Origin: Escherichia coli | GTDB lineage: Bacteria > Pseudomonadota > Gammaproteobacteria > Enterobacterales > Enterobacteriaceae | NCBI RefSeq assembly: GCF_003334305.1 | Contig: NZ_QOWS01000011.1 | Strand: one strand, 5' to 3' | DNA: 64,000 nucleotides | Shown: piece after piece, positions 1-44,313 of the stretch | Layout: the number at the start of each line of letters is the position of its first letter | Position numbering within the stretch: position 1 is the first letter of the stretch | Position numbers and translations under genes: made by a program | The notes under the pieces: model-generated | Told to the model about the DNA's origin: nothing | The model's database searches: none | Seen by the model: the letters and a program-made list of their open reading frames with translations, nothing else

Positions 1-1
1 C

Positions 2-1141
2 GACGGAACGCAGGCGACATTTATTGATGATGCTGGGGAGCAAAAATGGGCGGTGGATTCCATTGCCGACTGCGCGCGTCGTTTTATGGCGCATCCTCAG
101 GTGAAAGGACGTCGGGTATATGGACAGGTTGGGTTCAACTTTGCGGCGCATGCGCGGGGGATTGCCTTTAACGCCGGGGAGTGGCCGCTGCTGACGTTAA
201 CCGTTCCCCGTGAAGAACTTATTTTTGAAAAGGGAAATGTCACCGTTTATGCGGACTCCGCCGACGGGTGCCGACGTTTGTGCGAGTGGGTAAAAGAGGC
301 CGGTACAACGACGCAGAACGCACCACTGGCGGTGGATACCGCCCTCAATGGTGAGGCATATAAACAACAGGTTGCGCGCGCCGTTGCGGAGATCCGCCGT
401 GGCGAGTATGTCAAAGTGATTGTCTCGCGCGCCATTCCCCTGCCATCGCGGATTGATATGCCCGCCACGCTGTTATACGGGCGGCAGGCAAACACGCCTG
501 TGCGCTCGTTTATGTTCCGTCAGGAAGGACGCGAAGCGCTGGGCTTTAGCCCGGAACTGGTGATGTCAGTGACGGGCAATAAAGTGGTCACTGAACCGCT
601 TGCGGGCACCCGAGATCGCATGGGAAACCCGGAGCATAATAAGGCGAAAGAGGCAGAACTGCTGCACGACAGTAAAGAGGTGCTTGAGCATATCCTTTCT
701 GTCAAAGAAGCTATTGCTGAACTGGAGGCTGTTTGCCAGCCGGGCAGCGTGGTGGTTGAAGATTTAATGTCGGTTCGCCAGCGCGGCAGCGTTCAGCATC
801 TGGGGTCTGGCGTGAGCGGTCAGCTTGCGGAAAACAAGGATGCCTGGGATGCGTTTACCGTGCTGTTTCCGTCGATTACCGCCTCAGGTATCCCTAAAAA
901 TGCTGCTCTGAACGCGATTATGCAAATTGAGAAGACGCCGCGAGAGCTTTATTCCGGCGCAATCCTGCTGCTGGACGATACGCGCTTTGATGCGGCGCTA
1001 GTTCTGCGTTCCGTATTTCAGGATAGCCAGCGCTGCTGGATACAGGCGGGGGCGGGAATCATCGCGCAATCTACGCCGGAACGCGAACTGACAGAAACCC
1101 GGGAGAAATTAGCGAGCATTGCGCCCTATTTAATGGTGTAG
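2..1141 (+). CDS. ybtS: Salicylate synthase of the yersiniabactin pathway (Irp9/YbtS-like), 5'-truncated by the window edge
   Basis: Reading frame open from position 2 (no stop upstream of the GTG at 53); chorismate-binding enzyme family C-terminal domain; genomic context. Confidence 0.75.
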   Translation, partial: DGTQATFIDDAGEQKWAVDSIADCARRFMAHPQVKGRRVYGQVGFNFAAHARGIAFNAGEWPLLTLTVPREELIFEKGNVTVYADSADGCRRLCEWVKEAGTTTQNAPLAVDTALNGEAYKQQVARAVAEIRRGEYVKVIVSRAIPLPSRIDMPATLLYGRQANTPVRSFMFRQEGREALGFSPELVMSVTGNKVVTEPLAGTRDRMGNPEHNKAKEAELLHDSKEVLEHILSVKEAIAELEAVCQPGSVVVEDLMSVRQRGSVQHLGSGVSGQLAENKDAWDAFTVLFPSITASGIPKNAALNAIMQIEKTPRELYSGAILLLDDTRFDAALVLRSVFQDSQRCWIQAGAGIIAQSTPERELTETREKLASIAPYLMV

Positions 1142-1334: not shown

Positions 1335-2597
1335 CTATGGGATAAACTTATTTTTACCAATTGTATAAGGCGGTGCATAAGATTCTCGGCATGCTTCCAG
1401 ATAATCCGACCACCACTGCATCATCGCTTTGCGGGCTTCCAGGTGCTCTGCCTTATGAATATAAGCCATGCGCACGGTATTGCGCTCCTGATGACTCATC
1501 TGGCGTTCTACTGCGTCCTTTGCCCATAAACCCGATTCCATCAGCGCACTGCATGCCATTGCCCGGAAGCCGTGACCGCAGATATCCTTTTTCGTGTCGT
1601 AACCCATCACCCGCAGTGCCTTATTGACCGTGTTTTCACACATTGGCTTATACGGGTTATGGTCGCCGGGGAAGATCAGTTCATTATTACCGGTGATATC
1701 CTTAATCTGTTTCAGAATGGCGATGGACTGTTCTGAGAGGGGGACGATATGCGGCATTCGCATTTTTGCCCCGCGGCCGGAATAATGCACGCCAATAATG
1801 GGTTCTCGCGTCGCGGGTATCGTCCAGACTCGGTTTGTGAAATCAATCTCTGACCAGCGGGCGAAACGCAGTTCACTGGAGCGAATGAACACATGCAGCA
1901 TCAGCAGAACGGCATGCCGGGTCAGTTCACGGCCCTGATGATATGCCCCAATACGTTCAAGCAGTTCAGGCAGCCGCTCCAGCGGCAGGGCAGGATAGTG
2001 CCGTCTGACAGGAGGTGTGGTCACGCCGCCAAGGTTTGCTGCAGGGTTCGTATCGATTAACTCCTGATGGACCGCATGGCGTATTATGTTACTCAGGTGC
2101 TGCCGTGTGCGGGACGCAACCTCCAGCAGACCTTTTTCCTCGATCCCTTTCTGCAGGTCAATGAAATGACGGGGTTTAAGTTCTGATACAGGTAGGTTCC
2201 CGATGACCGGAAAGATGTGATTGTTCAGGCTGGCAAGCAGACGGTCGGCGGTGTTCTGCGACCATTTCCTGTTACTTTTATGCCACGCCAGCGCCACGTT
2301 TTTAAAAACTTTCTCCGGTGTTCGTGAGCCACGTACAGCAGCCCGCTGCTGTACCGGGTTGATATTCAGCGCCAGCATTTTACGGATACCTTCACGTTGC
2401 TGTCGCGCATCAGACAGGGAGATGGCTGGATAGGCACCCAGCGCAATGCGGGATTCTTTACCGCTAATACGGTATTTGAGATACCAGTGGCGGGAGCCAC
2501 CCGGCTTGACCCGCAGATACAGACCGTGAGAATCGGAGACTTTAAAGGGTTTATCAGAAGGCTTGAGGGTGCGGATTTTTGCGTCGGTAAGGGATAT
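1335..2597 (-). CDS. int: P4-family tyrosine integrase (HPI int); 420-codon frame, but the expected initiator position is ATA
   Basis: 347-aa ORF from ATG at 2378 extends in frame upstream through a canonical P4-integrase N-terminus (ISLTDAKIRSLKPSDKPFKVSDSHGLYLRVKPGGSRHWYLKYRISGKE...) to a TAA at 2613-2615. Confidence 0.85.
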   Translation of the reverse strand: MSLTDAKIRTLKPSDKPFKVSDSHGLYLRVKPGGSRHWYLKYRISGKESRIALGAYPAISLSDARQQREGIRKMLALNINPVQQRAAVRGSRTPEKVFKNVALAWHKSNRKWSQNTADRLLASLNNHIFPVIGNLPVSELKPRHFIDLQKGIEEKGLLEVASRTRQHLSNIIRHAVHQELIDTNPAANLGGVTTPPVRRHYPALPLERLPELLERIGAYHQGRELTRHAVLLMLHVFIRSSELRFARWSEIDFTNRVWTIPATREPIIGVHYSGRGAKMRMPHIVPLSEQSIAILKQIKDITGNNELIFPGDHNPYKPMCENTVNKALRVMGYDTKKDICGHGFRAMACSALMESGLWAKDAVERQMSHQERNTVRMAYIHKAEHLEARKAMMQWWSDYLEACRESYAPPYTIGKNKFIP

Positions 2598-2758
2598 ATG
2601 GGGGTCACTCCATTATCGAACTAACCTGACCCCAGATTTGACCACCAATTTTTCCCGATGCGTAGGGTAAAATCAAAATGCACCGAGAAGAGTTTTCACA
2701 CTAACCTGTTGAATCAACATCAGATAAAGATTCGCAAGGATGCAAGAAAACAGAAAAT

Positions 2759-2834
2759 TGGCTCCTCTGACTGGACTCGAACCAGTGACATACGGATTAA
2801 CAGTCCGCCGTTCTACCGACTGAACTACAGAGGA
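2759..2834 (-). tRNA. asnT: tRNA-Asn (GUU)
   Basis: Exact match to remembered E. coli tRNA-Asn, 76 nt with CCA end; identified as asnT by the flanking mtfA. Confidence 0.95.
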
Positions 2835-17166: not shown

Positions 17167-18084
17167 ATGCTTTTGGCCGGGAGTAGTTTACTGACGTTGC
17201 TCGATGATATCGCCACACTGCTGGACGATATCTCCGTGATGGGCAAACTGGCGGCGAAGAAAACCGCCGGTGTATTAGGGGATGATTTATCGCTCAATGC
17301 GCAACAAGTTTCAGGCGTGCGGGCCAACCGGGAACTTCCCGTGGTCTGGGGCGTGGCGAAAGGATCGCTGATCAATAAAGTGATTCTGGTGCCGCTGGCG
17401 CTGATCATCAGTGCGTTTATCCCGTGGGCGATTACGCCACTGTTGATGATTGGCGGCGCGTTTCTCTGCTTTGAAGGGGTAGAGAAAGTGCTGCATATGC
17501 TGGAGGCGCGTAAACATAAAGAAGATCCGGCGCAGAGTCAGCAGCGTCTGGAGAAGCTGGCGGCGCAGGATCCGCTGAAGTTTGAAAAAGACAAAATAAA
17601 AGGGGCGATTCGTACCGATTTTATATTGTCTGCGGAAATCGTCGCCATCACGCTGGGGATTGTGGCAGAAGCGCCGTTGCTTAATCAGGTGCTGGTGCTT
17701 TCAGGCATCGCGCTGGTAGTGACCGTGGGCGTCTACGGTCTGGTAGGGGTTATCGTTAAGATTGATGACCTGGGGTATTGGCTGGCGGAAAAATCCAGCG
17801 CGCTGATGCAGGCATTAGGTAAAGGGTTATTGATCATTGCGCCCTGGTTGATGAAAGCGTTATCGATTGTCGGCACGCTGGCGATGTTCCTCGTCGGCGG
17901 CGGGATTGTGGTACATGGTATTGCGCCGTTGCATCACGCCATTGAACATTTCGCCGGGCAGCAAAGTGCAGTGGTGGCGATGATATTACCGACTGTTTTA
18001 AATCTGATTCTTGGATTTATCATCGGCGGCATCGTGGTGCTGGGAGTGAAAGCCGTAGCGAAAATGCGCGGTCAGGCACATTAA
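17167..18084 (+). CDS. yedI: DUF808 inner-membrane protein YedI
   Basis: 305-aa ORF matching remembered YedI. Confidence 0.85.
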
Positions 18085-18162
18085 TACTCGCACAGGCTAT
18101 TATGCAAAATTCGCCATCTTCAACTAAGGTGAACAAGTTTCACTCGAAAAAAGGAGGCGAGT

Positions 18163-18345
18163 ATGAGCTTTATGGTTAGTGAGGAAGTTACGGTTAAAGA
18201 GGGCGGCCCGCGGATGATTGTCACTGGATACTCCAGCGGTATGGTTGAGTGTCGTTGGTATGACGGGTACGGGGTCAAGCGGGAAGCTTTTCATGAAACC
18301 GAGCTTGTTCCGGGGGAGGGGAGTCGTTCTGCGGAAGAAGTTTGA
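18163..18345 (+). CDS. yodC: Small protein YodC
   Basis: 60-aa ORF matching remembered YodC. Confidence 0.8.
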   Translation: MSFMVSEEVTVKEGGPRMIVTGYSSGMVECRWYDGYGVKREAFHETELVPGEGSRSAEEV

Positions 18346-18515
18346 AAGGGTATCATTAACACCAGGCCGGATCACATCCGGCCTGGTGTGCCAATGCCTG
18401 CAATGAATGATAGTCGCGTCTTATCATGCCACCATTATAAAATTATCGCTGTTTTGCGGTACGTTATCGCCGGGTTATGCCAGAATCATAAAAAAGCAGG
18501 TTGGGAGTCGTCAGG

Positions 18516-21040
<2,525 letters not shown>

Positions 21041-21219
21041 TTACCAGGATGATTCTCAAAACAGCACAAATTATCAAAGATGATTTTTTCGGGAGCGATC
21101 CCGTTGACGCCAGAGCCACCAAGGGGTGACGCGCGTCACATTTCTATTCATAAGTAGCGTTAATCATTCATATCACGAATATTTTCTTGTCAGCGAAAAA
21201 AATTGCGGATAAGGTGATG

Positions 21220-21306
21220 AACACATCAGATTTCCTGGTGTAACGAATTTTTTAAGTGCTTCTTGCTTAAGCAAGTTTCATCCCGACCCCCTCAGGGTCG
21301 GGATTT
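21220..21306 (+). ncRNA. dsrA: DsrA small regulatory RNA
   Basis: 87-nt match to remembered DsrA, including the terminal CCCGACCCCCTCAGGGTCGGG hairpin and U-tract. Confidence 0.95.
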
Positions 21307-21319
21307 TTTTATTGTGCAT

Positions 21320-21547
21320 TCAACGATTCACTTCAGAGACGCTGAAGTCATGAATATCCAGTTCGAAGGCATCCGCCAATTCACGCCATGTATGATATTC
21401 ACGTCCATCGACGCTAACGTGTTCAGAATCGTTCTGGCTGCGATGAACTTCGCTCTCGCTAATTTCATTGATCGCCGCCAGCAGGGCATCGACATCGACG
21501 CTGACCTCACGTTTTGCGGTATCGCTGTACTCTTTTGCGGTTTTCAT
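21320..21547 (-). CDS. yodD: Stress-induced small protein YodD
   Basis: 75-aa frame starting MKTAKEYSDTAKRE. Confidence 0.85.
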   Translation of the reverse strand: MKTAKEYSDTAKREVSVDVDALLAAINEISESEVHRSQNDSEHVSVDGREYHTWRELADAFELDIHDFSVSEVNR

Positions 21548-21619
21548 CATCTTTCCTCGCAACCGTTACTCTGTTGTTGCCGCCAGTCGTTAAGTCCGCC
21601 TGGCATCTCTTAAGTATAG

Positions 21620-21898
<279 letters not shown>

Positions 21899-21941
21899 TC
21901 TAATTCAGCCTGACTGGTGGGAAACCACCAGTCAGAATGTG

Positions 21942-22565
21942 TTAGCGCATGTTGACAAAAATACCATTAGTCACATTATCCGTCAGTCGGACGACATGGT
22001 AGATAACCTGTTTATTATGCGTTTTGATCTTACGTTTAATATTACCTTTATGCGATGAAACGGTCTTGGCTTTGATATTCATTTGGTCAGAGATTTGAAT
22101 GGTTCCCTGACCTGCCATCCACATTCGCAACATACTCGATTCGGTTCGGCTCAATGATAACGTCGGCATATTTAAAAACGAGGTTATCGTTGTCTCTTTT
22201 TTCAGAATATCGCCAAGGATATCGTCGAGAGATTCCGGTTTAATCGATTTAGAACTGATCAATAAATTTTTTCTGACCAATAGATATTCATCAAAATGAA
22301 CATTGGCAATTGCCATAAAAACGATAAATAACGTATTGGGATGTTGATTAATGATGAGCTTGATACGCTGACTGTTAGAAGCATCGTGGATGAAACAGTC
22401 CTCATTAATAAACACCACTGAAGGGCGCTGTGAATCACAAGCTATGGCAAGGTCATCAACGGTTTCAATGTCGTTGATTTCTCTTTTTTTAACCCCTCTA
22501 CTCAACAGATACCCGGTTAAACCTAGTCGGGTGTAACTACATAAATCCATAATAATCGTTGACAT
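21942..22565 (-). CDS. rcsA: Capsule-synthesis co-activator RcsA (LuxR family)
   Basis: 207-aa ORF with C-terminal LuxR-type helix-turn-helix. Confidence 0.95.
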
Positions 22566-22854
22566 GGCATACCCTCACTCAATGCGTAACGATAATTCCC
22601 CTTACCTGAATATTTCATCATGACTAAACGGAACAACATGGGTCACCTAATGCGCCACTCTCGCAATTTTTCAGGCGGACTTACTATCCCGTAAAGTGTT
22701 GTATAATTTGCCTGGAATTGTCTTAAAGTAAAGTAAATGTTGCGATATGTGAGTGAGCTTAAAACAAATATTTCGCCGCAGGAGTATCCTGGAAGATGTT
22801 CGTAGGTATTATTTTTCGGATAATCCTTAGGATAACATGATAAACGTTACGGAA

Positions 22855-23640
22855 TTATATTAATGGCAATTCACTAATAATATCAGCCAGCAAATTAAAC
22901 ATCTCACTGAATAAATGTTCGCAAAAAGGCGCAATTAACGGCATTAATGCCGCCATTAAAGAGATGCCGACAGTCAGAGTTAATGGAAATCCAATAACAA
23001 AAATGGATAATTGCGGGGCCATACGATTAAGTAAGCCTAATACCAGATTCAGGGTCAGCAGCAGAGTAATGAGCGGTAATGCCAGCATCAGCCCGTTAAG
23101 GAAAATCAAACTCCCTGCTTTGGTGAGTGCCAGAAACGCATTGCTGTTCAACGGTTCGCCACCAATTGGCAGGGTGTGAAAGGTATCGACCAGCAGTGAA
23201 ATCAACCATAAATGACCGTTAAATGTCAGGAACAGCAGTAACGCCAGCATATCCATGATACGCGCTAAAACGGGCATATTGAGATGGCTGGCCGGATCGA
23301 CAAACGTCGCAAATGACAGCCCCATTTGCAGACCGATAATTTCACCAGCGGTTCGCACAGCGGCAAAGGCAAATTGCATGGTAAAACCAAGCGCAATGCC
23401 GATCAGGATCTGCTGCACGGCCAGCCACAGAGCAAAGAACGAAAAAACAGGAACATCGTTGGCAGGTAATGATGGGGCAATAGCGAACGTGATCATCATT
23501 GCCAGACCCAGTTTTACCCGTTTCGGCACGCTGCGTTCGCTCAGAATTGGTGCGGTAGAAATGAGCGCCAGCACGCGCAGTAACGGCCAGAAGTACAGGC
23601 TTAACCAGGAAAGCCATTGATCGCTTGTTACCTGCATCAT
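22855..23640 (-). CDS. fliR: Flagellar export apparatus protein FliR
   Basis: 261-aa membrane ORF, last gene of fliLMNOPQR. Confidence 0.95.
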
Positions 23641-23648
23641 TGTACGGC

Positions 23649-23918
23649 CTACCCGATGATATACGGCAGGTTAGTGAACAAGGTGCGGACGTAATCCAGC
23701 AACAGATTGAGCATCCACGGTCCGGCAATAATAATGGCGATAAATACGGCGATGATTTTCGGAATAAACGACAGCGTCATTTCGTTGATCTGCGTGGCGG
23801 CCTGCAAAATACTGATGATAAGGCCCGTGACCAGCGCCACCAGCAACAGCGGGGCAGCCAGTGCCAGCGCGACTTTCATCGCTTCAGTCCCCATCATCAT
23901 GACCGATTCAGGTGTCAT
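23649..23918 (-). CDS. fliQ: Flagellar export apparatus protein FliQ
   Basis: 89-aa membrane ORF. Confidence 0.95.
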
Positions 23919-23927
23919 TTTGCCTCT

Positions 23928-24665
23928 CTAGCTGTAAAAGCTCTGCGCCAGCGAACCGACCAGCAATTGCCAGCCATCCACCAGTACAAACAGCATCAGT
24001 TTAAAGGGCAGAGCAATGGTGGCTGGGGGAACCATCATCATCCCCAATGCCATCAACACGCTGGCAATCACCAGGTCGATAATCAAAAAAGGAATGAAAA
24101 TCGTGAAGCCTATCTGAAATGCGGTTTTCAACTCGCTGGTCACGTAGGCCGGGAGCAAAATGCGCATCGGCACAGCTTCAGGTCCCTGCAACGGGCCAGT
24201 ATTCGCCAGTCTGGCAAACAACCCTAAATCCGCCTCACGGGTCTGACGCAGCATAAACTCACGCAGCGGCTGCGCCCCTTTTTCCAGCGCCTCCTGCATT
24301 GATATTTTCTCTTCGCTGAATGGCTGGTACGCATCGACATAAATTTTATCGATCACCGGCGACATAATAAAAAAGGTCAAAAACAGCGCCAGTCCCAGCA
24401 ATACCTGGTTAGGTGGCGCGGAGGGTGTTCCCAACGCGTTACGCAATAAACCAAAAACAATGATGATGCGGGTGAAACTGGTCATCATCAGTAAAATTGC
24501 CGGAATAAACGTCAACGAGGTGATGAACACCAGCGTCTGCACCGGGAGCGACCAGCTTTGTCCACCGCCAGGCAGCGGCTGGCTGGTGATACCCGGTAGT
24601 TGCGCGAAGGCGAGGGGCGTAACCAGCCAGAGAAGGACAGGTGCGACAGACAACAAACGACGCAT
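23928..24665 (-). CDS. fliP: Flagellar export apparatus protein FliP
   Basis: 245-aa ORF with signal peptide and conserved FliP core. Confidence 0.95.
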
Positions 24666-25030
24666 CAGGATCTCCCGCTACGCTTAAGCAAGTTTTTCAT
24701 GACCGACTGAAAATCGGTCTGCGGTATCTCTTCCGTTGGTGCTGAAGGGGGAAGTTTATGCAGCAGATTGATTTGCCCTGCGGTAACGCCGAGCACCAGC
24801 CGTGCATCTTCCACATCGACCACCACAACCCGTTCACGCGCGCCCAGCGAAGCACTGGCGCTAATTTTCAGACCGTTAACGCCAGTGCGTTTCGGGGCAA
24901 ATCCCAGCCGTTTTACCAGCCAGGCAGCAGCGAGGATCAGGGCAATAATGGCGATGAGTGCGCCGCTCACCTGCAGCAGTGGCGCAGCAGAAACCGGCGC
25001 GGAAGATTGCACAGTAGCGTGGTTATTCAT
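24665..25030 (-). CDS. fliO: Flagellar protein FliO
   Basis: 121-aa frame with a single transmembrane helix. Confidence 0.9.
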
Positions 25031-25032
25031 CA

Positions 25033-25446
25033 CTAACGGCTCAGGCGGCGCATCCGCTCAGACGGAGTAATGATATCGGTGATCCGCACGCCATATTTAT
25101 CAGCGACTACGACAACTTCGCCCTGAGCAATTAAATAACCGTTGATCAGAATATCCAGCGGTTCGCCCGCCAGACCGTCCAGCGCCACGACTGATCCTTG
25201 CGTCAGACGCAGTAACTCTTTGATGGTCATTCGTGTGCGGCCCAGCTCGACGGTCAGCTTGACCGGAATATCCATAATCAGGTCGATATCCTGCAACGTT
25301 CCGCTGACATCACCACCGCCAAATTGCTGGAACACCGCGTCGGCAGCGCTTTTGCCACTGGTTGATTTTTGTTCGCTCAACGCTTCAGCCCACAGATCGT
25401 CCATTGCGCCGTTGTTGTCATCGGCCGGATTATTCATGTCACTCAT
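25033..25446 (-). CDS. fliN: Flagellar motor switch protein FliN
   Basis: 137-aa ORF with conserved SpoA-type C-terminal domain. Confidence 0.95.
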   Translation of the reverse strand: MSDMNNPADDNNGAMDDLWAEALSEQKSTSGKSAADAVFQQFGGGDVSGTLQDIDLIMDIPVKLTVELGRTRMTIKELLRLTQGSVVALDGLAGEPLDILINGYLIAQGEVVVVADKYGVRITDIITPSERMRRLSR

Positions 25447-26447
25447 TTGGGCTGTTCCTCGTTCAGAGAATTTAAAATCGGGTTAATCAAATGTTCTATC
25501 CGTAACGCATACTGACCGTTGAGGGTGCCGTACTGACTGGTCAGAACCGGGACGCCGTCAACATGGGCGATGATGCGATCGGGTTTTTCTATCGGCAGGA
25601 CGTCGCCGGGTTTCAGTTTTAAAATCTGCGACAGGCGTAGCGAGATATCGGCAAAGTTGGCCACCAGTTCCAGCTGTGAATGCTGCACCTGGCGCACCAG
25701 GTTATCGCGCCAGTTCTGATCTTCATTACGCGAGTTTTCCAGCGGCGGGTTAACCAACAATTCCCGTAGCGGCTCGATCATGCTGAATGGCAGGCAGATA
25801 TTAAATTCGCCGGTCAGGTTGCCAATCTCCACATGGAACGGCGTGTTAACCACAATGTCGTTCGGCGAGGTGGTGATATTGGTAAATTTCACCTGCATTT
25901 CCGAACGCACGTACTCAACTTCCAGCGGATTAATCGCCTTCCAGGCGTCGCTATAGCCTTCAAGCGCCAGCTTTAACATGCGATTGATGACGCGCTGTTC
26001 TGTATGGGTAAACTCGCGGCCTTCCACTTTGGTCGGGAAGCGTCCATCGCCGCCAAACAGGTTATCCACGGCGATAAACACCAGACTCGGTGAGAACACC
26101 ACCAGCCCTGTGCCGCGCAGCGGTTTCAGATGGATAAGGTTCAGGTTGGTCGGCACCGGCAAGTTGCGGGCAAATTCATGGTACGGCTGAATGCGGATGG
26201 CCCCGACGGTAATATCCGGGCTACGGCGCAGCAGGTTGAACAGCCCCATACGAAAATGGCGGGCAAAGCGCTCATTAATGATTTCCAGCGCCTGCAAACG
26301 TTCGCGCACAACCCGTCGTTGGGTATTCGGATCGTACGGACGAATGTCACTTTCGCCGCTAACACTGGCTGTCGGTTCGTCTTTGACTTCGCTGTCACCA
26401 TTCAACAGCGCATCAATTTCAGCTTGAGAAAGAATACTATCGCCCAT
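25443..26447 (-). CDS. fliM: Flagellar motor switch protein FliM
   Basis: 334-aa frame starting MGDSILSQAEIDALL (CheY-P-binding N-terminus). Confidence 0.95.
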   Translation of the reverse strand: MGDSILSQAEIDALLNGDSEVKDEPTASVSGESDIRPYDPNTQRRVVRERLQALEIINERFARHFRMGLFNLLRRSPDITVGAIRIQPYHEFARNLPVPTNLNLIHLKPLRGTGLVVFSPSLVFIAVDNLFGGDGRFPTKVEGREFTHTEQRVINRMLKLALEGYSDAWKAINPLEVEYVRSEMQVKFTNITTSPNDIVVNTPFHVEIGNLTGEFNICLPFSMIEPLRELLVNPPLENSRNEDQNWRDNLVRQVQHSQLELVANFADISLRLSQILKLKPGDVLPIEKPDRIIAHVDGVPVLTSQYGTLNGQYALRIEHLINPILNSLNEEQPK

Positions 26448-26451
26448 GTCG

Positions 26452-26916
26452 TTATCGCAGAATAAAAGCGGTATACAGCACGTCGGTGACATCCTGTTTC
26501 GGTTGCCCGGCAACAAGCGGGGTGGAAAGTGTGGTTTTAATCTCGGCAATCAGGTTTTTCTTGCCTTCTTCTGTCGCCAGTACGGCAGCATCCTGACGCG
26601 AAAACAGTAACAGCAAACGGCTACGGACTTCCGGCAAATACTCACTCAGCCGCGAGCGGGTAGCTTCATCTTTGAGTCGCAGGGTTATGCCGATATAAAG
26701 CACGCGATCCGCATCGCCCAGATTGACTGTAAAGGTATCCAGCGCATAGAAGACCGGGGAGGGCACGACGCGTTGCTGCGCTTTGTCTTCAGCGGCAACC
26801 TGATGCGAATGCCAGTAGCTGTAACCTGCGCTGGCACAGGCCGCGAGGGTAATGAATACCAGAATCGGGATCCAAAGCGATCGCTTGCTTTTCTTGCTTA
26901 TCGCGTAATCAGTCAT
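26452..26916 (-). CDS. fliL: Flagellar basal-body-associated protein FliL
   Basis: 154-aa ORF with one transmembrane helix. Confidence 0.95.
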
Positions 26917-27020
26917 GTGTTTCGGTCTTCCTGTGTCGCTACTGCTTATCGGCTAATTATCCTGCGTCTTGAGCGCAACAAAGCGGGGAAAAGACGCGGA
27001 TTACGGTGCTACCTCTGACG

Positions 27021-28148
27021 TTAGGCGAAAATATCAACGCCGCTGTTGCCTGTTACACGCCCTTGTAAAGAGACGGGAACCGGAAGCGTATCGTCGTCTT
27101 CCCCCGCCAGAGGTTCATGGTTTGCTGTGCGTTGGCTTTGCTGTTGTTGGGAAGCGGCCTGCTGCTGACCACTAAAGCTTTCGCCACTGATGTTGCTTTG
27201 CCCTAACTGAATGCCACTTTCGGCCAGCTGCGTACGCAGTACCGGCAGCGCTGCTTCCAGGGCGGCGCGTACGTGCTGATGCGGCGAAACCATCTGGATT
27301 TGCGCCTGGTTATCATCCACTTTGAGGGAGATTTGCACTTCACCTAAATCCTGTGGGTGCAGACGCAACTCTGCACTTTGTTGCCCCTGGCGGGTGAACA
27401 GCGAAATATGCTGGCTTAATGATTGTTGCCATTCGTGAGAACCCAGCGGTGCACTCAAGACAGGCGCGGCGACGGTGGGCAGTGGCTGTGTCTGGTGTGG
27501 AGTGATTAGCGGGCTGGCGGCAGCGGTCACCGGTGAAGGTGTGCTGATGACTTCCGCTTTACTCTGGGCTTCTGCTACCAGCGCTGTTAATGGCTGAGCT
27601 GGCGTGCCGGGGCCGTCATCAGGCTGTGCTGTAGTGAGTTGCGCAGAAGTCAGTTTTGTGAAAAGCGTTGGTTTCTCTGTCGGTAACACGGTTGACGGTG
27701 CATCAGTCACTTTGGGCGTATTGTCAAAACCCGGCAACATCGCAAAAAGGGCACTCAGGCTTGCGGTGACGTCTTCATTCAGATCATCCGCTTTTTCGTC
27801 TTTTGCCGTATTGTTGTCAGCCGCCGCAGCCAACGTTATCGTCTGAGCGGTGGTTAACGGTGTTAATGTGGATTGTTCGTCGTTGATGACAGGCGGTGTT
27901 TCATCCACAGGGATCAGTAAATCTGCTTGTTGCGCGTCTGAAAGAATATCGCTGACCAGCGGCTCGCCTTTTGCCGTGGGCTTATCTGTTGCCACCAGCA
28001 ACTGGGGAGTCGCTTTGTCGGTTGTTGCCTCACCTGTTAATGCTTCGCTCAACAACGCGAGAAAATCTTGTGCAGCATCGCTGGCTTTGCCGCCAGGCAA
28101 TGTGGCGTTATCAACGTCAGCGGTAATCAAGGGCGCTATGCGAATCAT
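27021..28148 (-). CDS. fliK: Flagellar hook-length control protein FliK
   Basis: 375-aa Pro/Gln/Thr-rich ORF with conserved C-terminal domain. Confidence 0.95.
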
Positions 28149-39618: not shown

Positions 39619-40028
39619 CAGACTGGGTCCTGAATCAAAGAAGGGGAGAGTAAAGACTCTTTCCAGGCATCGGCAATATTGCGCATTAATGCTTCCACTT
39701 CTTCGACTGCGGAGACATCGTTGCGTAAATTGGCTTGCAGCAAACGCCTGACCATATAGCTATAAAGAGCAATCAAGTTTTGGGTTAATTCGTCTTTGCT
39801 CTCTTCATCAAGACTCACCCGCAGCCCGTTCTCAATGATGTTGATCGCTTTTGATAAAGAGACGCCTTTGCCTTGCTGATTGTTGTCCTGCATAAACAGG
39901 CGCGCTCTAACCAGTGCGCTCAGCACTCCATCAAATAGCATGGTGACCAGCTGCTGTTGGCTGGCGCTCATTACGGCGCTTTCGACGCCAATTTGTGCAT
40001 AGGCCTGGGTGCCTTTTGCCGCGTACAT
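39618..40028 (-). CDS. fliS: Flagellin-specific chaperone FliS
   Basis: 136-aa ORF. Confidence 0.95.
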
Positions 40029-40052
40029 GACCTGTCTCCCGATGAATATTGA

Positions 40053-41459
40053 TTACTTGGAATTACTGTTGTTTTCGAACTGCTGCGTTAAGTAGCTGCT
40101 GGTGCTGTTTAACGAGGTCATTAAAACGTCCAGTTGGGTAAATTGTTCTTTGTAGCGAGCGACCTGCGCATCAATGCGATCGCTGGCGGCGTTGTAGTCT
40201 TTAGTTAACTTATTCAGGGTCTTACTAACGCCATCGGTAGCGGCTTTAATAATGCCCGTTGTCGAAAGCCAACTGGTCAGGTTGCTGCCGATGGTGGTTG
40301 TGATGCCGGTTTTTTTACCATCGCCAACAATCAATGCACCTACGCCGCTGGCATCTTTTTTCAGTGCAGCGGTGAGTTTGTCGGCATCCAGTTCCAGTTT
40401 GCCATCGCTGGGATCGGTCGTGATACCAATCTGCGCCAGCGTTTTATAGTTGGAAGAACTGACGGTATTACTCAGCATCGATTTCAACTGCGTCTGAATC
40501 GTCCGCAGCGTGGAGTCGCCGAGCAGTGCGCCATTGCTTGAACTCTGGCTATCAGCTCCCGCATCTACGGCGGTGTATTTGGTCAGGCTGCTGAAGGTAT
40601 CTATTAGCGAGTTATAGGCATTCACCCAGTCTTTAATCGCCGTTTGCGCTTTGGAGGTGTCCTGAGTGATGGTTAGCGTCTGGTTGCCCGTGGTGACATC
40701 GTTCAGGTTCAGGGTGATGTTTTCCAGCGCGTCGCTGATGGTGTTGCTGCTGTTCTCAATGGCGACGTTGTTGACCGTCAGCTGCGCATTCTGGGCGGCG
40801 ACCGAGACCTCCATACCGTTGCTACTGGCACTGGCGTCATAGCCCATAAAACTTTGTAGCGCATCATCACCGCTGACCGAGAGTGTCATCGCATTATCAA
40901 GGCCGGTGTCATTTGATGTGACTGACAGACGATATTCACCGTTACCCACGTTAATGATGCTCGCACTTACGCCCGCTTTTGCGTTGTTGATGGCATCACG
41001 GATCCCGCTTAACGACGAGTTAGCCGCGCTGATATCAATGGTAATCGGATCTTTGTCGCCGCCTTGTTGAATGGTGAGTTTGCTGTCGCTGGTGGCGATC
41101 GCCGTTTTCGTATCGTCTCTGGTGGTGCGCGTGGTCAGGGTTTGCGCCTGCGCCAGATGGGTGACGCTGATGGTGTATTTCCCGGCGATGGCGTTACCCG
41201 CGGTGGTGGCACTGAACGCGGTGGTGCTGCTGGTGGTGCTGGTGGCGGAAAAAAGATCGGCTTTAGACAATGCAGTATTGGCGGTCTGGAAAGTCGTCAG
41301 CGCGCTTTTCAGCGTACCGTAGGCGCTAAGTTTAGCGGTAAACGACGATTGCTGATTTGAAATAGGGGTTAGCGTCGCTTTTTGCGCGGCGGTGAGGCTA
41401 TCAAGGATTGAACTTAAATCCAGGCCTGACCCGACTCCCAGCGATGAAATACTTGCCAT
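40053..41459 (-). CDS. fliD: Flagellar filament cap protein FliD
   Basis: 468-aa ORF. Confidence 0.95.
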   Translation of the reverse strand: MASISSLGVGSGLDLSSILDSLTAAQKATLTPISNQQSSFTAKLSAYGTLKSALTTFQTANTALSKADLFSATSTTSSTTAFSATTAGNAIAGKYTISVTHLAQAQTLTTRTTRDDTKTAIATSDSKLTIQQGGDKDPITIDISAANSSLSGIRDAINNAKAGVSASIINVGNGEYRLSVTSNDTGLDNAMTLSVSGDDALQSFMGYDASASSNGMEVSVAAQNAQLTVNNVAIENSSNTISDALENITLNLNDVTTGNQTLTITQDTSKAQTAIKDWVNAYNSLIDTFSSLTKYTAVDAGADSQSSSNGALLGDSTLRTIQTQLKSMLSNTVSSSNYKTLAQIGITTDPSDGKLELDADKLTAALKKDASGVGALIVGDGKKTGITTTIGSNLTSWLSTTGIIKAATDGVSKTLNKLTKDYNAASDRIDAQVARYKEQFTQLDVLMTSLNSTSSYLTQQFENNSNSK

Positions 41460-41502
41460 GCGATTTCCTTTTATCTTTCGACACGTAAAACGAATACCGG
41501 GG

Positions 41503-41529
41503 TTATCGGCCTGAATTGCGCAAAGTTTA
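41503..41529 (-). promoter_or_regulatory. sigma28 (FliA) class-3 promoter of fliDST
   Basis: Minus strand TAAACTTT, 11-nt spacer, GCCGATAA. Confidence 0.8.
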
Positions 41530-41621
41530 CGTTTAATTGTTTTTTTTAATAGCGGGAATAAGGGGCAGAGAAAAGAGTATTTCGGCGACTAACAAAAAAT
41601 GGCTGTTTGTGAAAAAAATTC

Positions 41622-41648
41622 TAAAGGTTGTTTTACGACAGACGATAA
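41622..41648 (+). promoter_or_regulatory. sigma28 (FliA) class-3 promoter of fliC
   Basis: TAAAGGTT, 11-nt spacer, GACGATAA, about 75 nt upstream of the fliC ATG. Confidence 0.8.
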
Positions 41649-41724
41649 CAGGGTTGACGGCGATTGAGCCGACGGGTGGAAACCCAATACGTAATCAACG
41701 ACTTGCAATATAGGATAACGAATC

Positions 41725-43431
41725 ATGGCACAAGTCATTAATACCAACAGCCTCTCGCTGATCACTCAAAATAATATCAACAAGAACCAGTCTGCGCTGT
41801 CGAGTTCTATCGAGCGTCTGTCTTCTGGCTTGCGTATTAACAGCGCGAAGGATGACGCCGCAGGTCAGGCGATTGCTAACCGTTTTACTTCTAATATTAA
41901 AGGCCTGACTCAGGCTGCACGTAACGCCAACGACGGTATCTCCGTTGCGCAGACCACTGAAGGCGCGCTGTCCGAAATCAACAACAACTTACAGCGTATT
42001 CGTGAACTGACGGTTCAGGCTTCTACCGGGACTAACTCCGATTCAGATCTGGACTCCATTCAGGACGAAATCAAATCCCGTCTCGACGAAATTGACCGCG
42101 TATCCGGTCAGACCCAGTTCAACGGCGTGAACGTACTGGCGAAAGACGGTTCGATGAAAATTCAGGTTGGTGCGAATGACGGCCAGACTATCACTATTGA
42201 TCTGAAGAAAATTGACTCTGATACGCTGGGGCTGAATGGGTTTAACGTTAACGGCAAAGGTACTATTGCGAACAAAGCTGCTACAGTCAGCGATCTGACC
42301 GCTGCTGGTGCAACGGGAACAGGTCCTTATGCTGTGACCACAAACAATACAGCTCTCAGCGCTAGCGATGCACTGTCTCGCCTGAAAACCGGAGATACAG
42401 TTACTACTACTGGCTCGAGTGCTGCGACCTATACTTATGATGCGGCTAAAGGGAACTTCACCACTCAAGCAACAGTTGCAGATGGTGATGTTGTTAACTT
42501 TGCAAATACTCTGAAACCAGCGGCTGGCACTACTGCATCAGGTGTTTATACTCGTAGTACTGGTGATGTGAAGTTTGATGTAGATGCTAATGGCGATGTG
42601 ACCATCGGTGGTAAAGCCGCGTACCTGGACGCCACTGGTAACCTATCTACAAACAACGCCGGCATTGCATCTTCAGCGAAATTGTCCGATCTGTTTGCTA
42701 GCGGTAGTACTTTAGCGACAACTGGTTCTATCCAGCTGTCTGGCACAACTTATAACTTTGGTGCTGCGGCAACTTCTGGCGTAACCTACACCAAAACGGT
42801 AAGTGCTGATACTGTTCTGAGCACAGTACAGAGTGCTGCAACGGCTAACACAGCAGTTACTGGTGCGACAATTAAGTATAATACAGGTATTCAGTCTGCA
42901 ACTGCGTCTTTCGGTGGTGCGAATACTAATGGTGCTGGTAATTCGAATGACACCTATACTGATGCAGACAAAGAGCTCACCACAACCGCATCTTACACTA
43001 TCAACTACAACGTCGATAAGGATACCGGTACAGTAACTGTAGCTTCAAATGGCGCAGGTGCAACTGGTAAATTTGCAGCTACTGTTGGGGCACAGGCTTA
43101 TGTTAACTCTACAGGTAAACTGACCACTGAAACCACCAGTGCAGGCACTGCAACCCAAGATCCTCTGGCTGCCCTGGACGACGCTATCAGCTCCATCGAC
43201 AAATTCCGTTCATCCCTGGGTGCTATCCAGAACCGTCTGGATTCTGCGGTGACTAACCTGAACAACACCACTACCAACCTGTCTGAAGCGCAGTCCCGTA
43301 TTCAGGACGCTGACTATGCGACCGAAGTGTCCAACATGTCGAAAGCGCAGATTATCCAGCAGGCCGGTAACTCCGTGCTGGCAAAAGCCAACCAGGTACC
43401 GCAGCAGGTTCTGTCTCTGCTGCAGGGATAA
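41725..43431 (+). CDS. fliC: Flagellin (H antigen), 568 aa, non-K-12 central domain
   Basis: Conserved N-terminal ([20 protein letters not shown]...) and C-terminal (LSLLQG) flagellin domains flanking a long Thr/Ala/Gly-rich variable region. Confidence 0.95.
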
Positions 43432-43447
43432 TCGCCTGATTACGCGC

Positions 43448-43472
43448 AAACCCCGCTCCGGCGGGGTTTTTT
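43448..43472 (+). terminator. fliC intrinsic terminator
   Basis: AAACCCCGC TCCG GCGGGGTTTTTT hairpin with U-tract. Confidence 0.9.
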
Positions 43473-43560
43473 ACAATCGGCTTTTTGCGTAACCCCCAAA
43501 TAACCCCTCATTTCACCCACTAATCGTCCGATTAAAAACCCTGCAGAAACGGATAATCAT

Positions 43561-43568
43561 GCCGATAA
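43561..43568 (+). promoter_or_regulatory. Candidate sigma28 -10 element upstream of fliA
   Basis: GCCGATAA 25 nt upstream of the fliA GTG; no good -35 located. Confidence 0.4.
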
Positions 43569-43593
43569 CTCATATAACGCAGGGCTGTTTATC

Positions 43594-44313
43594 GTGAATT
43601 CACTCTATACCGCTGAAGGTGTAATGGATAAACACTCGCTGTGGCAGCGTTATGTCCCGCTGGTGCGTCACGAAGCATTGCGCCTGCAGGTTCGACTGCC
43701 CGCGAGCGTGGAACTTGACGATCTGCTACAGGCGGGCGGCATTGGGTTACTTAATGCCGTCGAACGCTATGACGCCCTACAAGGAACGGCATTTACAACT
43801 TACGCAGTGCAGCGTATCCGTGGCGCTATGCTGGATGAACTTCGCAGCCGTGACTGGGTGCCGCGCAGCGTGCGACGCAACGCGCGTGAAGTGGCACAGG
43901 CAATAGGGCAACTGGAGCAGGAACTTGGCCGCAACGCCACGGAAACTGAGGTAGCGGAACGTTTAGGGATCGATATTGCCGATTATCGCCAAATGTTGCT
44001 CGACACCAATAACAGCCAGCTCTTCTCCTACGATGAGTGGCGCGAAGAGCACGGCGATAGCATTGAACTGGTTACTGATGATCATCAGCGAGAAAACCCG
44101 CTACAACAACTGCTGGACAGTAATCTGCGCCAGCGGGTGATGGAAGCTATCGAAACGTTGCCGGAGCGCGAAAAACTGGTATTAACCCTCTATTACCAGG
44201 AAGAGCTGAATCTCAAAGAGATTGGTGCAGTGCTGGAGGTCGGGGAATCGCGGGTCAGTCAGTTACACAGCCAGGCCATTAAACGGTTACGCACTAAACT
44301 GGGTAAGTTATAA
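43594..44313 (+). CDS. fliA: Flagellar sigma factor sigma28
   Basis: 239-aa ORF from a GTG start, sigma70-family regions 2-4. Confidence 0.95.
   Translation: MNSLYTAEGVMDKHSLWQRYVPLVRHEALRLQVRLPASVELDDLLQAGGIGLLNAVERYDALQGTAFTTYAVQRIRGAMLDELRSRDWVPRSVRRNAREVAQAIGQLEQELGRNATETEVAERLGIDIADYRQMLLDTNNSQLFSYDEWREEHGDSIELVTDDHQRENPLQQLLDSNLRQRVMEAIETLPEREKLVLTLYYQEELNLKEIGAVLEVGESRVSQLHSQAIKRLRTKLGKL

Follow-up and report, generated by a model that had tools for sequence, protein, structure and literature searches.

The closest described relatives of the integrase considered here are those of the Yersinia High Pathogenicity Island (HPI; IntB/IntA) and of ICEKp1 and ICEEc1, P4/CP4-57-type tyrosine integrases of three domains that are encoded 161 bp from tRNA-Asn, with a 17-bp att core and with ybtS adjacent. 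In ICEKp1, the int start lies 161 bp downstream of tRNA-asn (PMC13023037), and in the homologous ICEKp1 and ICEEc1 elements transcription of the integrated int starts at the tRNA-asn promoter and continues across the leader (PMC13023037; also PMC8209727). In Escherichia coli, the right direct repeat was lost at the base of the asnT-HPI (PMC2606025; PMC8209727), and a right-border deletion is common to all ECOR asnT-HPIs (Schubert et al. 2009). A preprint on HPI evolution examined the main E. coli clade, reported that 98.6% of its strains have the int-ybtS/asnT layout described below, and left "the highly variable intA" out of its analysis. An inactivating lesion of this gene is already on record for asnT-fixed islands, namely, a truncated intB lacking bp 124-470, which occurs in the HPI of both E. 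coli and Enterobacter (PMC2801613).

A further relative is the int of the pks island at asnW. It is identical to the HPI int over the ~60 nt compared upstream and the first 13 nt of the coding sequence, with divergence beginning at nt 14 (ACC versus AAC), and it shares the spacing between tRNA-Asn and int (according to annotation), the att core, and read-through from the asn-tRNA promoter (PMC8209727). It differs from the int studied here in that it has kept ATG and encodes 423 aa, and its island keeps both direct repeats and appears conserved (PMC8209727). Earlier work already covers the gene and the island, as well as the immobility of the latter and the decay of its integrase; an explicit description of an ATA start in HPI int was not found in the open-access papers searched.

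The integrase locus at asnT

The window analyzed here, a 64,000-nt stretch of an E. coli contig (NZ_QOWS01000011.1), carries the left end of a yersiniabactin HPI at asnT. Since the neighboring gene is ybtS, the integrase belongs to the HPI. The int and ybtS genes stand at the left end of the island, which is inserted at asnT beside mtfA and tRNA-Ser; the latter two lie beyond tRNA-Asn, as in every asnT-HPI locus compared. The features of the locus are given below in window coordinates.

1..1141, plus strand: 3' part of ybtS, the first yersiniabactin gene, cut by the window edge and adjoining int
1335..2597, minus strand: int reading frame, 420 codons plus TAG, encoding the P4-type tyrosine integrase of the HPI; intact apart from the initiator
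1785..2336, minus strand: four further derived missense changes (allele site table), E88V (2335), L149Q (2152), M172I (2082), and R271H (1786)
2337..2591, minus strand: arm-type DNA-binding domain, residues 3 to 87, missing if translation begins at Met74
2376..2378, minus strand: first in-frame ATG (Met74), the start picked by gene callers that disallow ATA; product of 347 aa
2511..2513, minus strand: derived missense change L29R (CTG to CGG) in the arm-binding domain; Leu in Raoultella, the asnV-ICE copies, and PDB 3JTZ
2595..2597, minus strand: initiator position of HPI int, ATA; ancestral state ATG, with G to A at 2595
2598..2758, minus strand: leader of 161 nt from tRNA-Asn to int, the spacing being read from the sequence
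2608..2611, minus strand: GGAG, a putative Shine-Dalgarno motif 10 nt 5' of ATA/ATG, the same in both allele types
2613..2615, minus strand: in-frame TAA, five codons 5' of ATA, which rules out any upstream alternative start
2758..2774, minus strand: 17-bp att core CCAGTCAGAGGAGCCAA on the attL side, at the tRNA 3' end; sole copy in the window, with the core sequence as published in PMC2801613
2759..2834, minus strand: tRNA-Asn (asnT), the attachment site of the island (ARAGORN)

The preliminary description of this stretch had reported that the minus-strand frame stays open for 73 codons 5' of the ATG at 2378, that it is bounded by the TAA at 2613-2615, and that ATA occupies 2595-2597. All of this was confirmed. 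Between the TAA and the ATA, the minus strand reads TGG AGT GAC CCC CAT; from the ATA onward it encodes I S L T D A K I R T L K P ..., with 73 codons preceding the first in-frame ATG, and the frame closes at the TAG at 1337-1335. The further claim that the 73 upstream codons contain no ATG, GTG, or TTG also held, with none among the 78 codons from the TAA to Met74, where the only near-cognates are the weak CTG, ATT, and ATC. The int gene has no canonical initiation codon that would give the full-length protein, the codon at 2597-2595 being ATA. Its frame is nonetheless not disrupted in the manner of a pseudogene: all 420 codons are open, and PGAP sets no pseudogene flag on an identical locus. 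A mini-ORF of two codons (ATG-GAG-TGA, 2604-2612, minus strand), out of frame with int, overlaps the GGAG motif in ATG and ATA alleles.

Comparison of the int translation with Pfam returned Arm-DNA-bind_3 at residues 3 to 87 (E = 5.8e-24), Phage_int_M at residues 98 to 191 (E = 1.3e-22), and Phage_integrase at residues 224 to 384 (E = 1.6e-19), which is the three-domain architecture (arm-binding, SAM-like/core-binding, and catalytic) of a P4-type tyrosine integrase. Residues 1 to 81 were identical at 80 of 81 positions to the arm-binding domain of PDB 3JTZ/3RMP (E = 2.1e-46 for 3JTZ), which we take to be the Yersinia HPI integrase, and PDB 3JTZ begins with Met at the position homologous to ATA. 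Because of the Arm-DNA-bind_3 match and the 80/81 identity to this structure, the 5' codons do not represent a chance open frame. The earlier recognition of a P4-integrase N-terminus was thus correct in substance, although the motif that it had cited as IRSLKPS was misread and the sequence encodes IRTLKPS. As regards the catalytic R-K-H-R-H/W-Y residues, a search of the PDB by sequence found no homologue of the catalytic domain; IRSSELR, GHGFRA, and RMAYIH can be picked out as motifs by eye in the translation.

Relative to the ancestral sequence, the window haplotype carries M1I, L29R, E88V, L149Q, M172I, and R271H and only one synonymous change, at 1440; R271H is not at a recognized catalytic position. 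It is the ATA in place of ATG and the five derived missense changes that distinguish the window int from the integrases of the Yersinia HPI, ICEKp1, and ICEEc1.

Frequency and polarity of the ATA allele

When a 41-nt query centered on the ATA was compared by megablast with 5,426 complete E. coli genomes, 954 matched, 862 of them exactly. Megablast requires an exact 28-base word, so that any match to a 41-nt query must carry the central base. Indeed, ATA was confirmed in all 13 sampled matches, as well as in the window, and the 1,561-bp region matched two complete E. coli genomes at 100%. The ATA is a real, common natural allele, and the base call is beyond doubt. A sequencing or assembly error at position 2595 had been considered earlier, and this candidate was rejected: it has nothing in its favor beyond its a priori possibility, and the exact 41-mer in 862 independent complete genomes, the ATA in ~954, and the two matches across the whole region reduce its probability to practically nil. 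A mutation private to this strain is likewise contradicted by the ~954 complete genomes that carry ATA.

The allele counts given here are estimates that follow the same 41-mer megablast logic, with class sizes extrapolated proportionally from part of the matches. The count for the ATG version of the 41-mer also took in the int of the pks island (asnW) and of ICE-type HPIs (asnV) and was reinterpreted by mismatch class. The asnT alleles fell into the following classes.

ATA start: ~954 genomes (41-mer query)
ST131-like ATG: ~510 genomes (two-mismatch class of the ATG 41-mer)
APEC-E19019-like ATG: ~195 genomes
ATG, with nt 124-470 deleted (347 bp, frameshift) in each of the three loci sampled: ~417 genomes

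By this estimate, ~45% of asnT-HPI alleles have ATA, ~20% carry the deletion, and about a third have ATG and are full length.

An ATG with otherwise identical flanks was found in Raoultella planticola, in both sampled ICE-type HPI copies at asnV in E. coli, and in the pks-island int at asnW; ATG is also present in the int copies of ST131, APEC E19019, and 98201. A 40-nt degenerate pattern run over species-representative contigs detected Raoultella planticola only, being too strict to capture Yersinia or Klebsiella, and the outgroup polarity was taken from Raoultella, the ICE-type asnV copies, the pks paralogue, and PDB 3JTZ. The ATA of the window sits exactly 161 bp from tRNA-Asn, matching the spacing of the ICEKp1 int. 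Because the outgroups, the paralogues, and the solved protein all start with ATG or Met and because the 161-bp spacing is the same as that of the ICEKp1 int, the ATA is derived, through a single G-to-A transition in the third position of the initiator. This is the change that the preliminary description had favored, and every outgroup and paralogue examined agrees with it in carrying ATG between identical flanks. The converse, that ATA is the ancestral state in the HPI, was rejected on account of the ATG in Raoultella, the asnV-ICE copies, and the pks int and the Met in PDB 3JTZ. It had been suggested that the occurrence of ATA in reference HPI integrases would count against a start-codon mutation. 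Such integrases do occur within E. coli (~954 genomes), but the outgroups and paralogues have ATG.

The two possible starts are both represented in the databases. PGAP/RefSeq annotates the 100%-identical locus as a 1263-nt coding sequence starting at ATA (WP_024165620.1), and the same DNA allele has been deposited, with ATA read as Met, as a 420-aa integrase (RefSeq/UniRef D1LDH9) in at least 1,000 contigs. The exact 347-aa product of a Met74 start has been deposited as "integrase," also in at least 1,000 contigs (e.g., E. coli VR50 AKA90986.1). Where HPI mobility or the integrity of the integrase is scored solely from annotation, pipelines would disagree for ~1/6 of complete E. coli genomes. 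The practical value of the ATA finding lies mainly in annotation and in the interpretation of island mobility, and it leaves the understanding of HPI function or spread unchanged.

Initiation at ATA, immobility of the island, and selection on int

The window int is probably cotranscribed from the asnT promoter, as its homologues are, and read-through from this tRNA promoter would keep the gene transcribed. The 161-nt leader was predicted to fold into a structure no more stable than that of shuffled sequence (z = -0.59). In E. coli reporters, initiation at ATA reaches ~1 to 2% (sfGFP) or 0.1 to 3% (NanoLuc) of that at ATG (bioRxiv 10.1101/063800), and the int ATA would be expected to yield only ~0.1 to 3% of the normal amount of full-length Int. 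Most likely, then, the ATA acts as a leaky knock-down of full-length Int, ~30- to 1000-fold, in a dispensable relic gene. It would not be an absolute null, low-level synthesis of Int from the ATA being possible. A start at Met74 would, as had been stated before, give 347 aa and remove the N-terminal arm-binding domain at residues 3 to 87. Possibly a little of this truncated Int is made, and it would be incapable of arm-dependent recombination. Fragments of lambda Int provide the analogy for a truncated integrase that fails in arm-dependent recombination.

The right end of the island lies outside the window, and three other genomes were examined instead: FDAARGOS_497, which has the ATA and whose int locus is 100% identical to that of the window over 1,561 bp, and APEC E19019 and ST131, which have ATG. 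Over the 46.8 kb from asnT in FDAARGOS_497, with up to 3 mismatches allowed, att cores were found only inside four tRNA-Asn genes, and none was found after fyuA. The right-hand 17-bp att repeat after fyuA was also missing in APEC E19019 and ST131, so that the loss of attR that characterizes the asnT-fixed HPI of E. coli was seen in the ATA genome and in both ATG genomes. Since attR is missing in ATG and ATA lineages alike, its loss predates the start-codon change, and the ATA is at most redundant for immobility. Compared with the Yersinia HPI, ICEKp1, and ICEEc1, the window int belongs to an island that lacks attR in the genomes with an identical locus, and it probably has no recombination substrate.

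The preliminary description had proposed that the ATA helps to immobilize the island, and this part of it was not borne out, given that the 17-bp core is absent beyond fyuA from all three genomes, whether they have ATA (one) or ATG (two). We considered the wider possibility that the start-codon change was itself an immobilizing or co-immobilizing event. Int is needed for HPI excision in Yersinia and ICEKp1 (PMC13023037), and ATA would be expected to reduce Int output ~30- to 1000-fold. However, attR is absent from ATG-bearing asnT islands and from a genome identical to the window at this locus, and the ATA is later, lying inside one subclade marked by G1440, with a mobility effect that is redundant. 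An immobilizing role for the ATA is accordingly quite improbable.

In FDAARGOS_497, asnW, asnU, and asnV carry an identical 17-bp core 40 to 44 kb from asnT (39981-44297 of the extracted locus), two of them in direct orientation. Even in an island that lacks attR, Int could potentially act on these three extra tRNA-Asn cores and bring about rearrangements.

Selection on int was assessed from an ungapped, coordinate-based site table, which avoided the spurious variable sites that MAFFT produced when alleles with the deletion or IS1 were aligned as well. Among 23 int alleles there were 38 segregating sites, 28 of them nonsynonymous (start codon excluded) and 8 synonymous (stop excluded), which corresponds to a pN/pS of ~1.1. 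In three complete islands, int had 11 nonsynonymous changes and 1 synonymous change (pN/pS 3.5), versus 71 and 126, respectively, in the eleven ybt/irp/fyuA genes of the same islands (pN/pS 0.18; Fisher p = 1.8e-4). The private variants of ATG asnT alleles were nearly all missense (~10 nonsynonymous to 1 synonymous, a hand tally of the site table made independently of any tree-based branch assignment), and those of the presumably mobile ICE-type copies were mostly synonymous (a hand tally of small numbers). The int gene evolves without constraint in E. coli, whatever its start codon. Moreover, because the ATG asnT alleles also gather almost only missense changes, this relaxation predates and is independent of the ATA.

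Ordinary decay of a relic gene after the loss of attR is, in our judgment, the probable explanation for the integrase of an asnT-fixed HPI with a derived ATG-to-ATA start. In such a course of events, the island would have lost its right-hand att repeat, leaving Int without an excision substrate; int would then have been released from selection; and independent lesions would have accumulated, of which the ATA is the most frequent and which also include the 347-bp deletion, IS1, a nonsense codon, and many missense changes. The product of the window allele would be expected to lack activity. The HPI int would offer a clean example of an integrase that decays by several routes after the loss of an att site fixed its island, while the cargo genes are under strong purifying selection. 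Some observations nevertheless sit uneasily with decay. The 420-codon frame is fully open, its integrase motifs are recognizable, and PGAP treats it as a functional coding sequence. In addition, ST131-like ATG alleles nest among ATA alleles, and a restored start, if that is what they have, would be odd for a purely neutral relic.

We also weighed whether the ATA might instead be a genuine, selected low-efficiency start that throttles the integrase, like AUU in infC or GTG in lacI. ATA is permitted as an initiator in translation table 11 and is annotated as the start by RefSeq, the Shine-Dalgarno motif and the frame are kept, and the codon is old enough to sit on several haplotypes. Noncanonical starts can be adaptive in E. 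coli, and infC and lacI likewise place a near-cognate initiator behind a normal Shine-Dalgarno motif, but those starts are conserved and functionally selected (PMC11445065), whereas the HPI int ATA is a derived polymorphism in a neutrally evolving gene. A selected noncanonical start would be expected to show a conserved codon and a frame under purifying selection, and neither was found: ATG occupies this position in the outgroups, in the paralogues, and in one third of the E. coli alleles, and the frame that follows evolves neutrally (pN/pS ~1.1) and gains nonsense mutations and IS insertions. Int is, furthermore, without an excision substrate in these islands. We regard a selected ATA as very improbable.

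A different form of selection was also considered, in which inactivation of int is itself adaptive. After the loss of attR, an active Int in the presence of an unpaired attL and of three more asn-tRNA att sites of identical sequence would be a liability, through harmful deletions or inversions between asn tRNA genes. A knock-down would then be selected, and the ATA, the 347-bp deletion, and the IS1 and nonsense lesions would be convergent knock-outs, which would account for the high frequency of each of several independent inactivating lesions. At least three independent lesion types, together making up about two thirds of asnT-HPI alleles, are in keeping with this reading, as are a pN/pS of ~1.1 or higher (3.5 in the three-genome comparison), the presence of four identical 17-bp cores within ~44 kb, and the inversion of the asnW-asnU-asnV segment in UTI89 (PMC8209727). 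We nevertheless consider adaptive inactivation unlikely. A pN/pS near 1 is the neutral prediction, and 11 nonsynonymous changes to 1 are too few to claim a value above 1; an allele can become frequent by hitchhiking, both with clones that are successful and with ybt genes that are under selection; and about one third of alleles, including that of the very successful ST131, have ATG and an intact frame. If inactivation were adaptive, the apparent regain of ATG in ST131-like alleles would need explaining, whether by back-mutation or by conversion from the pks int.

Other lesions and the history of the ATA allele

A second lesion was present in 4 of 14 ATA alleles, namely, Q394* in one and IS1 in three. 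The nonsense codon is that of APEC E16002 (O1:K1:H7), where the ATA allele carries a C-to-T change equivalent to window position 1418 and is annotated as a pseudogene. In P276M, JSMCR1, and ATCC 43886, the ATA-type int is cut short by IS1 at one shared position, after ~nt 971; ATCC 43886, in addition, lacks one C in the run of Cs that separates the Shine-Dalgarno motif from the start codon.

The 347-bp deletion (nt 124-470, frameshift) was seen on an ATG/S2F haplotype in strain 405, O26 RM10386, and LSN03-016011/A, and its 41-mer class of ~417 complete genomes includes O26 and O111 EHEC. It is the lesion of the published truncated intB, with which the ATA allele shares an inactivating change in the same gene of asnT-fixed islands. 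The two differ in that the deletion in truncated intB shifts the reading frame, sits on an ATG haplotype, and goes with annotation as a pseudogene, whereas the ATA frame is intact and is annotated as a full-length coding sequence or as a 347-aa product. APEC E19019 has an intact int with ATG, but its irp1 (HMWP1) carries a frameshift according to the annotation (17770-27257 of the extracted locus), and the yersiniabactin pathway of this strain may be inactive.

The derived G1440 is common to all ATA alleles and to the ST131-like ATG alleles, and T2335 and G2512 are common to the ST131-like alleles and the group of the window. The ST131-like int (ST131 and Iso00270) has ATG together with D5S (GA to AG at 2585/2584) and A55T, and it nests within the ATA clade. 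GmF052 carries the ST131-like markers with ATA and also has TAA changed to TGA at 2614. The ST131-like and GmF052 alleles conflict in the site table, and a tree with a single origin of ATA was not obtained for the 23 alleles, since sites 2595, 2512, and 2335 do not pass the four-gamete test against one another. If recombination is set aside, one origin of ATA and one restoration to ATG would be the most parsimonious history of these 23 alleles. The ST131-like pattern suggests either a return to ATG by back-mutation or gene conversion or else a recurrent G-to-A change. Clonal descent, together with homologous recombination of the island, would have carried the ATA allele through E. coli. The pks-island int, as found in 536, PA45B, and AF20, has an identical 5' end; it is a possible gene-conversion donor for ATG, and it confounds allele counts made with short probes.
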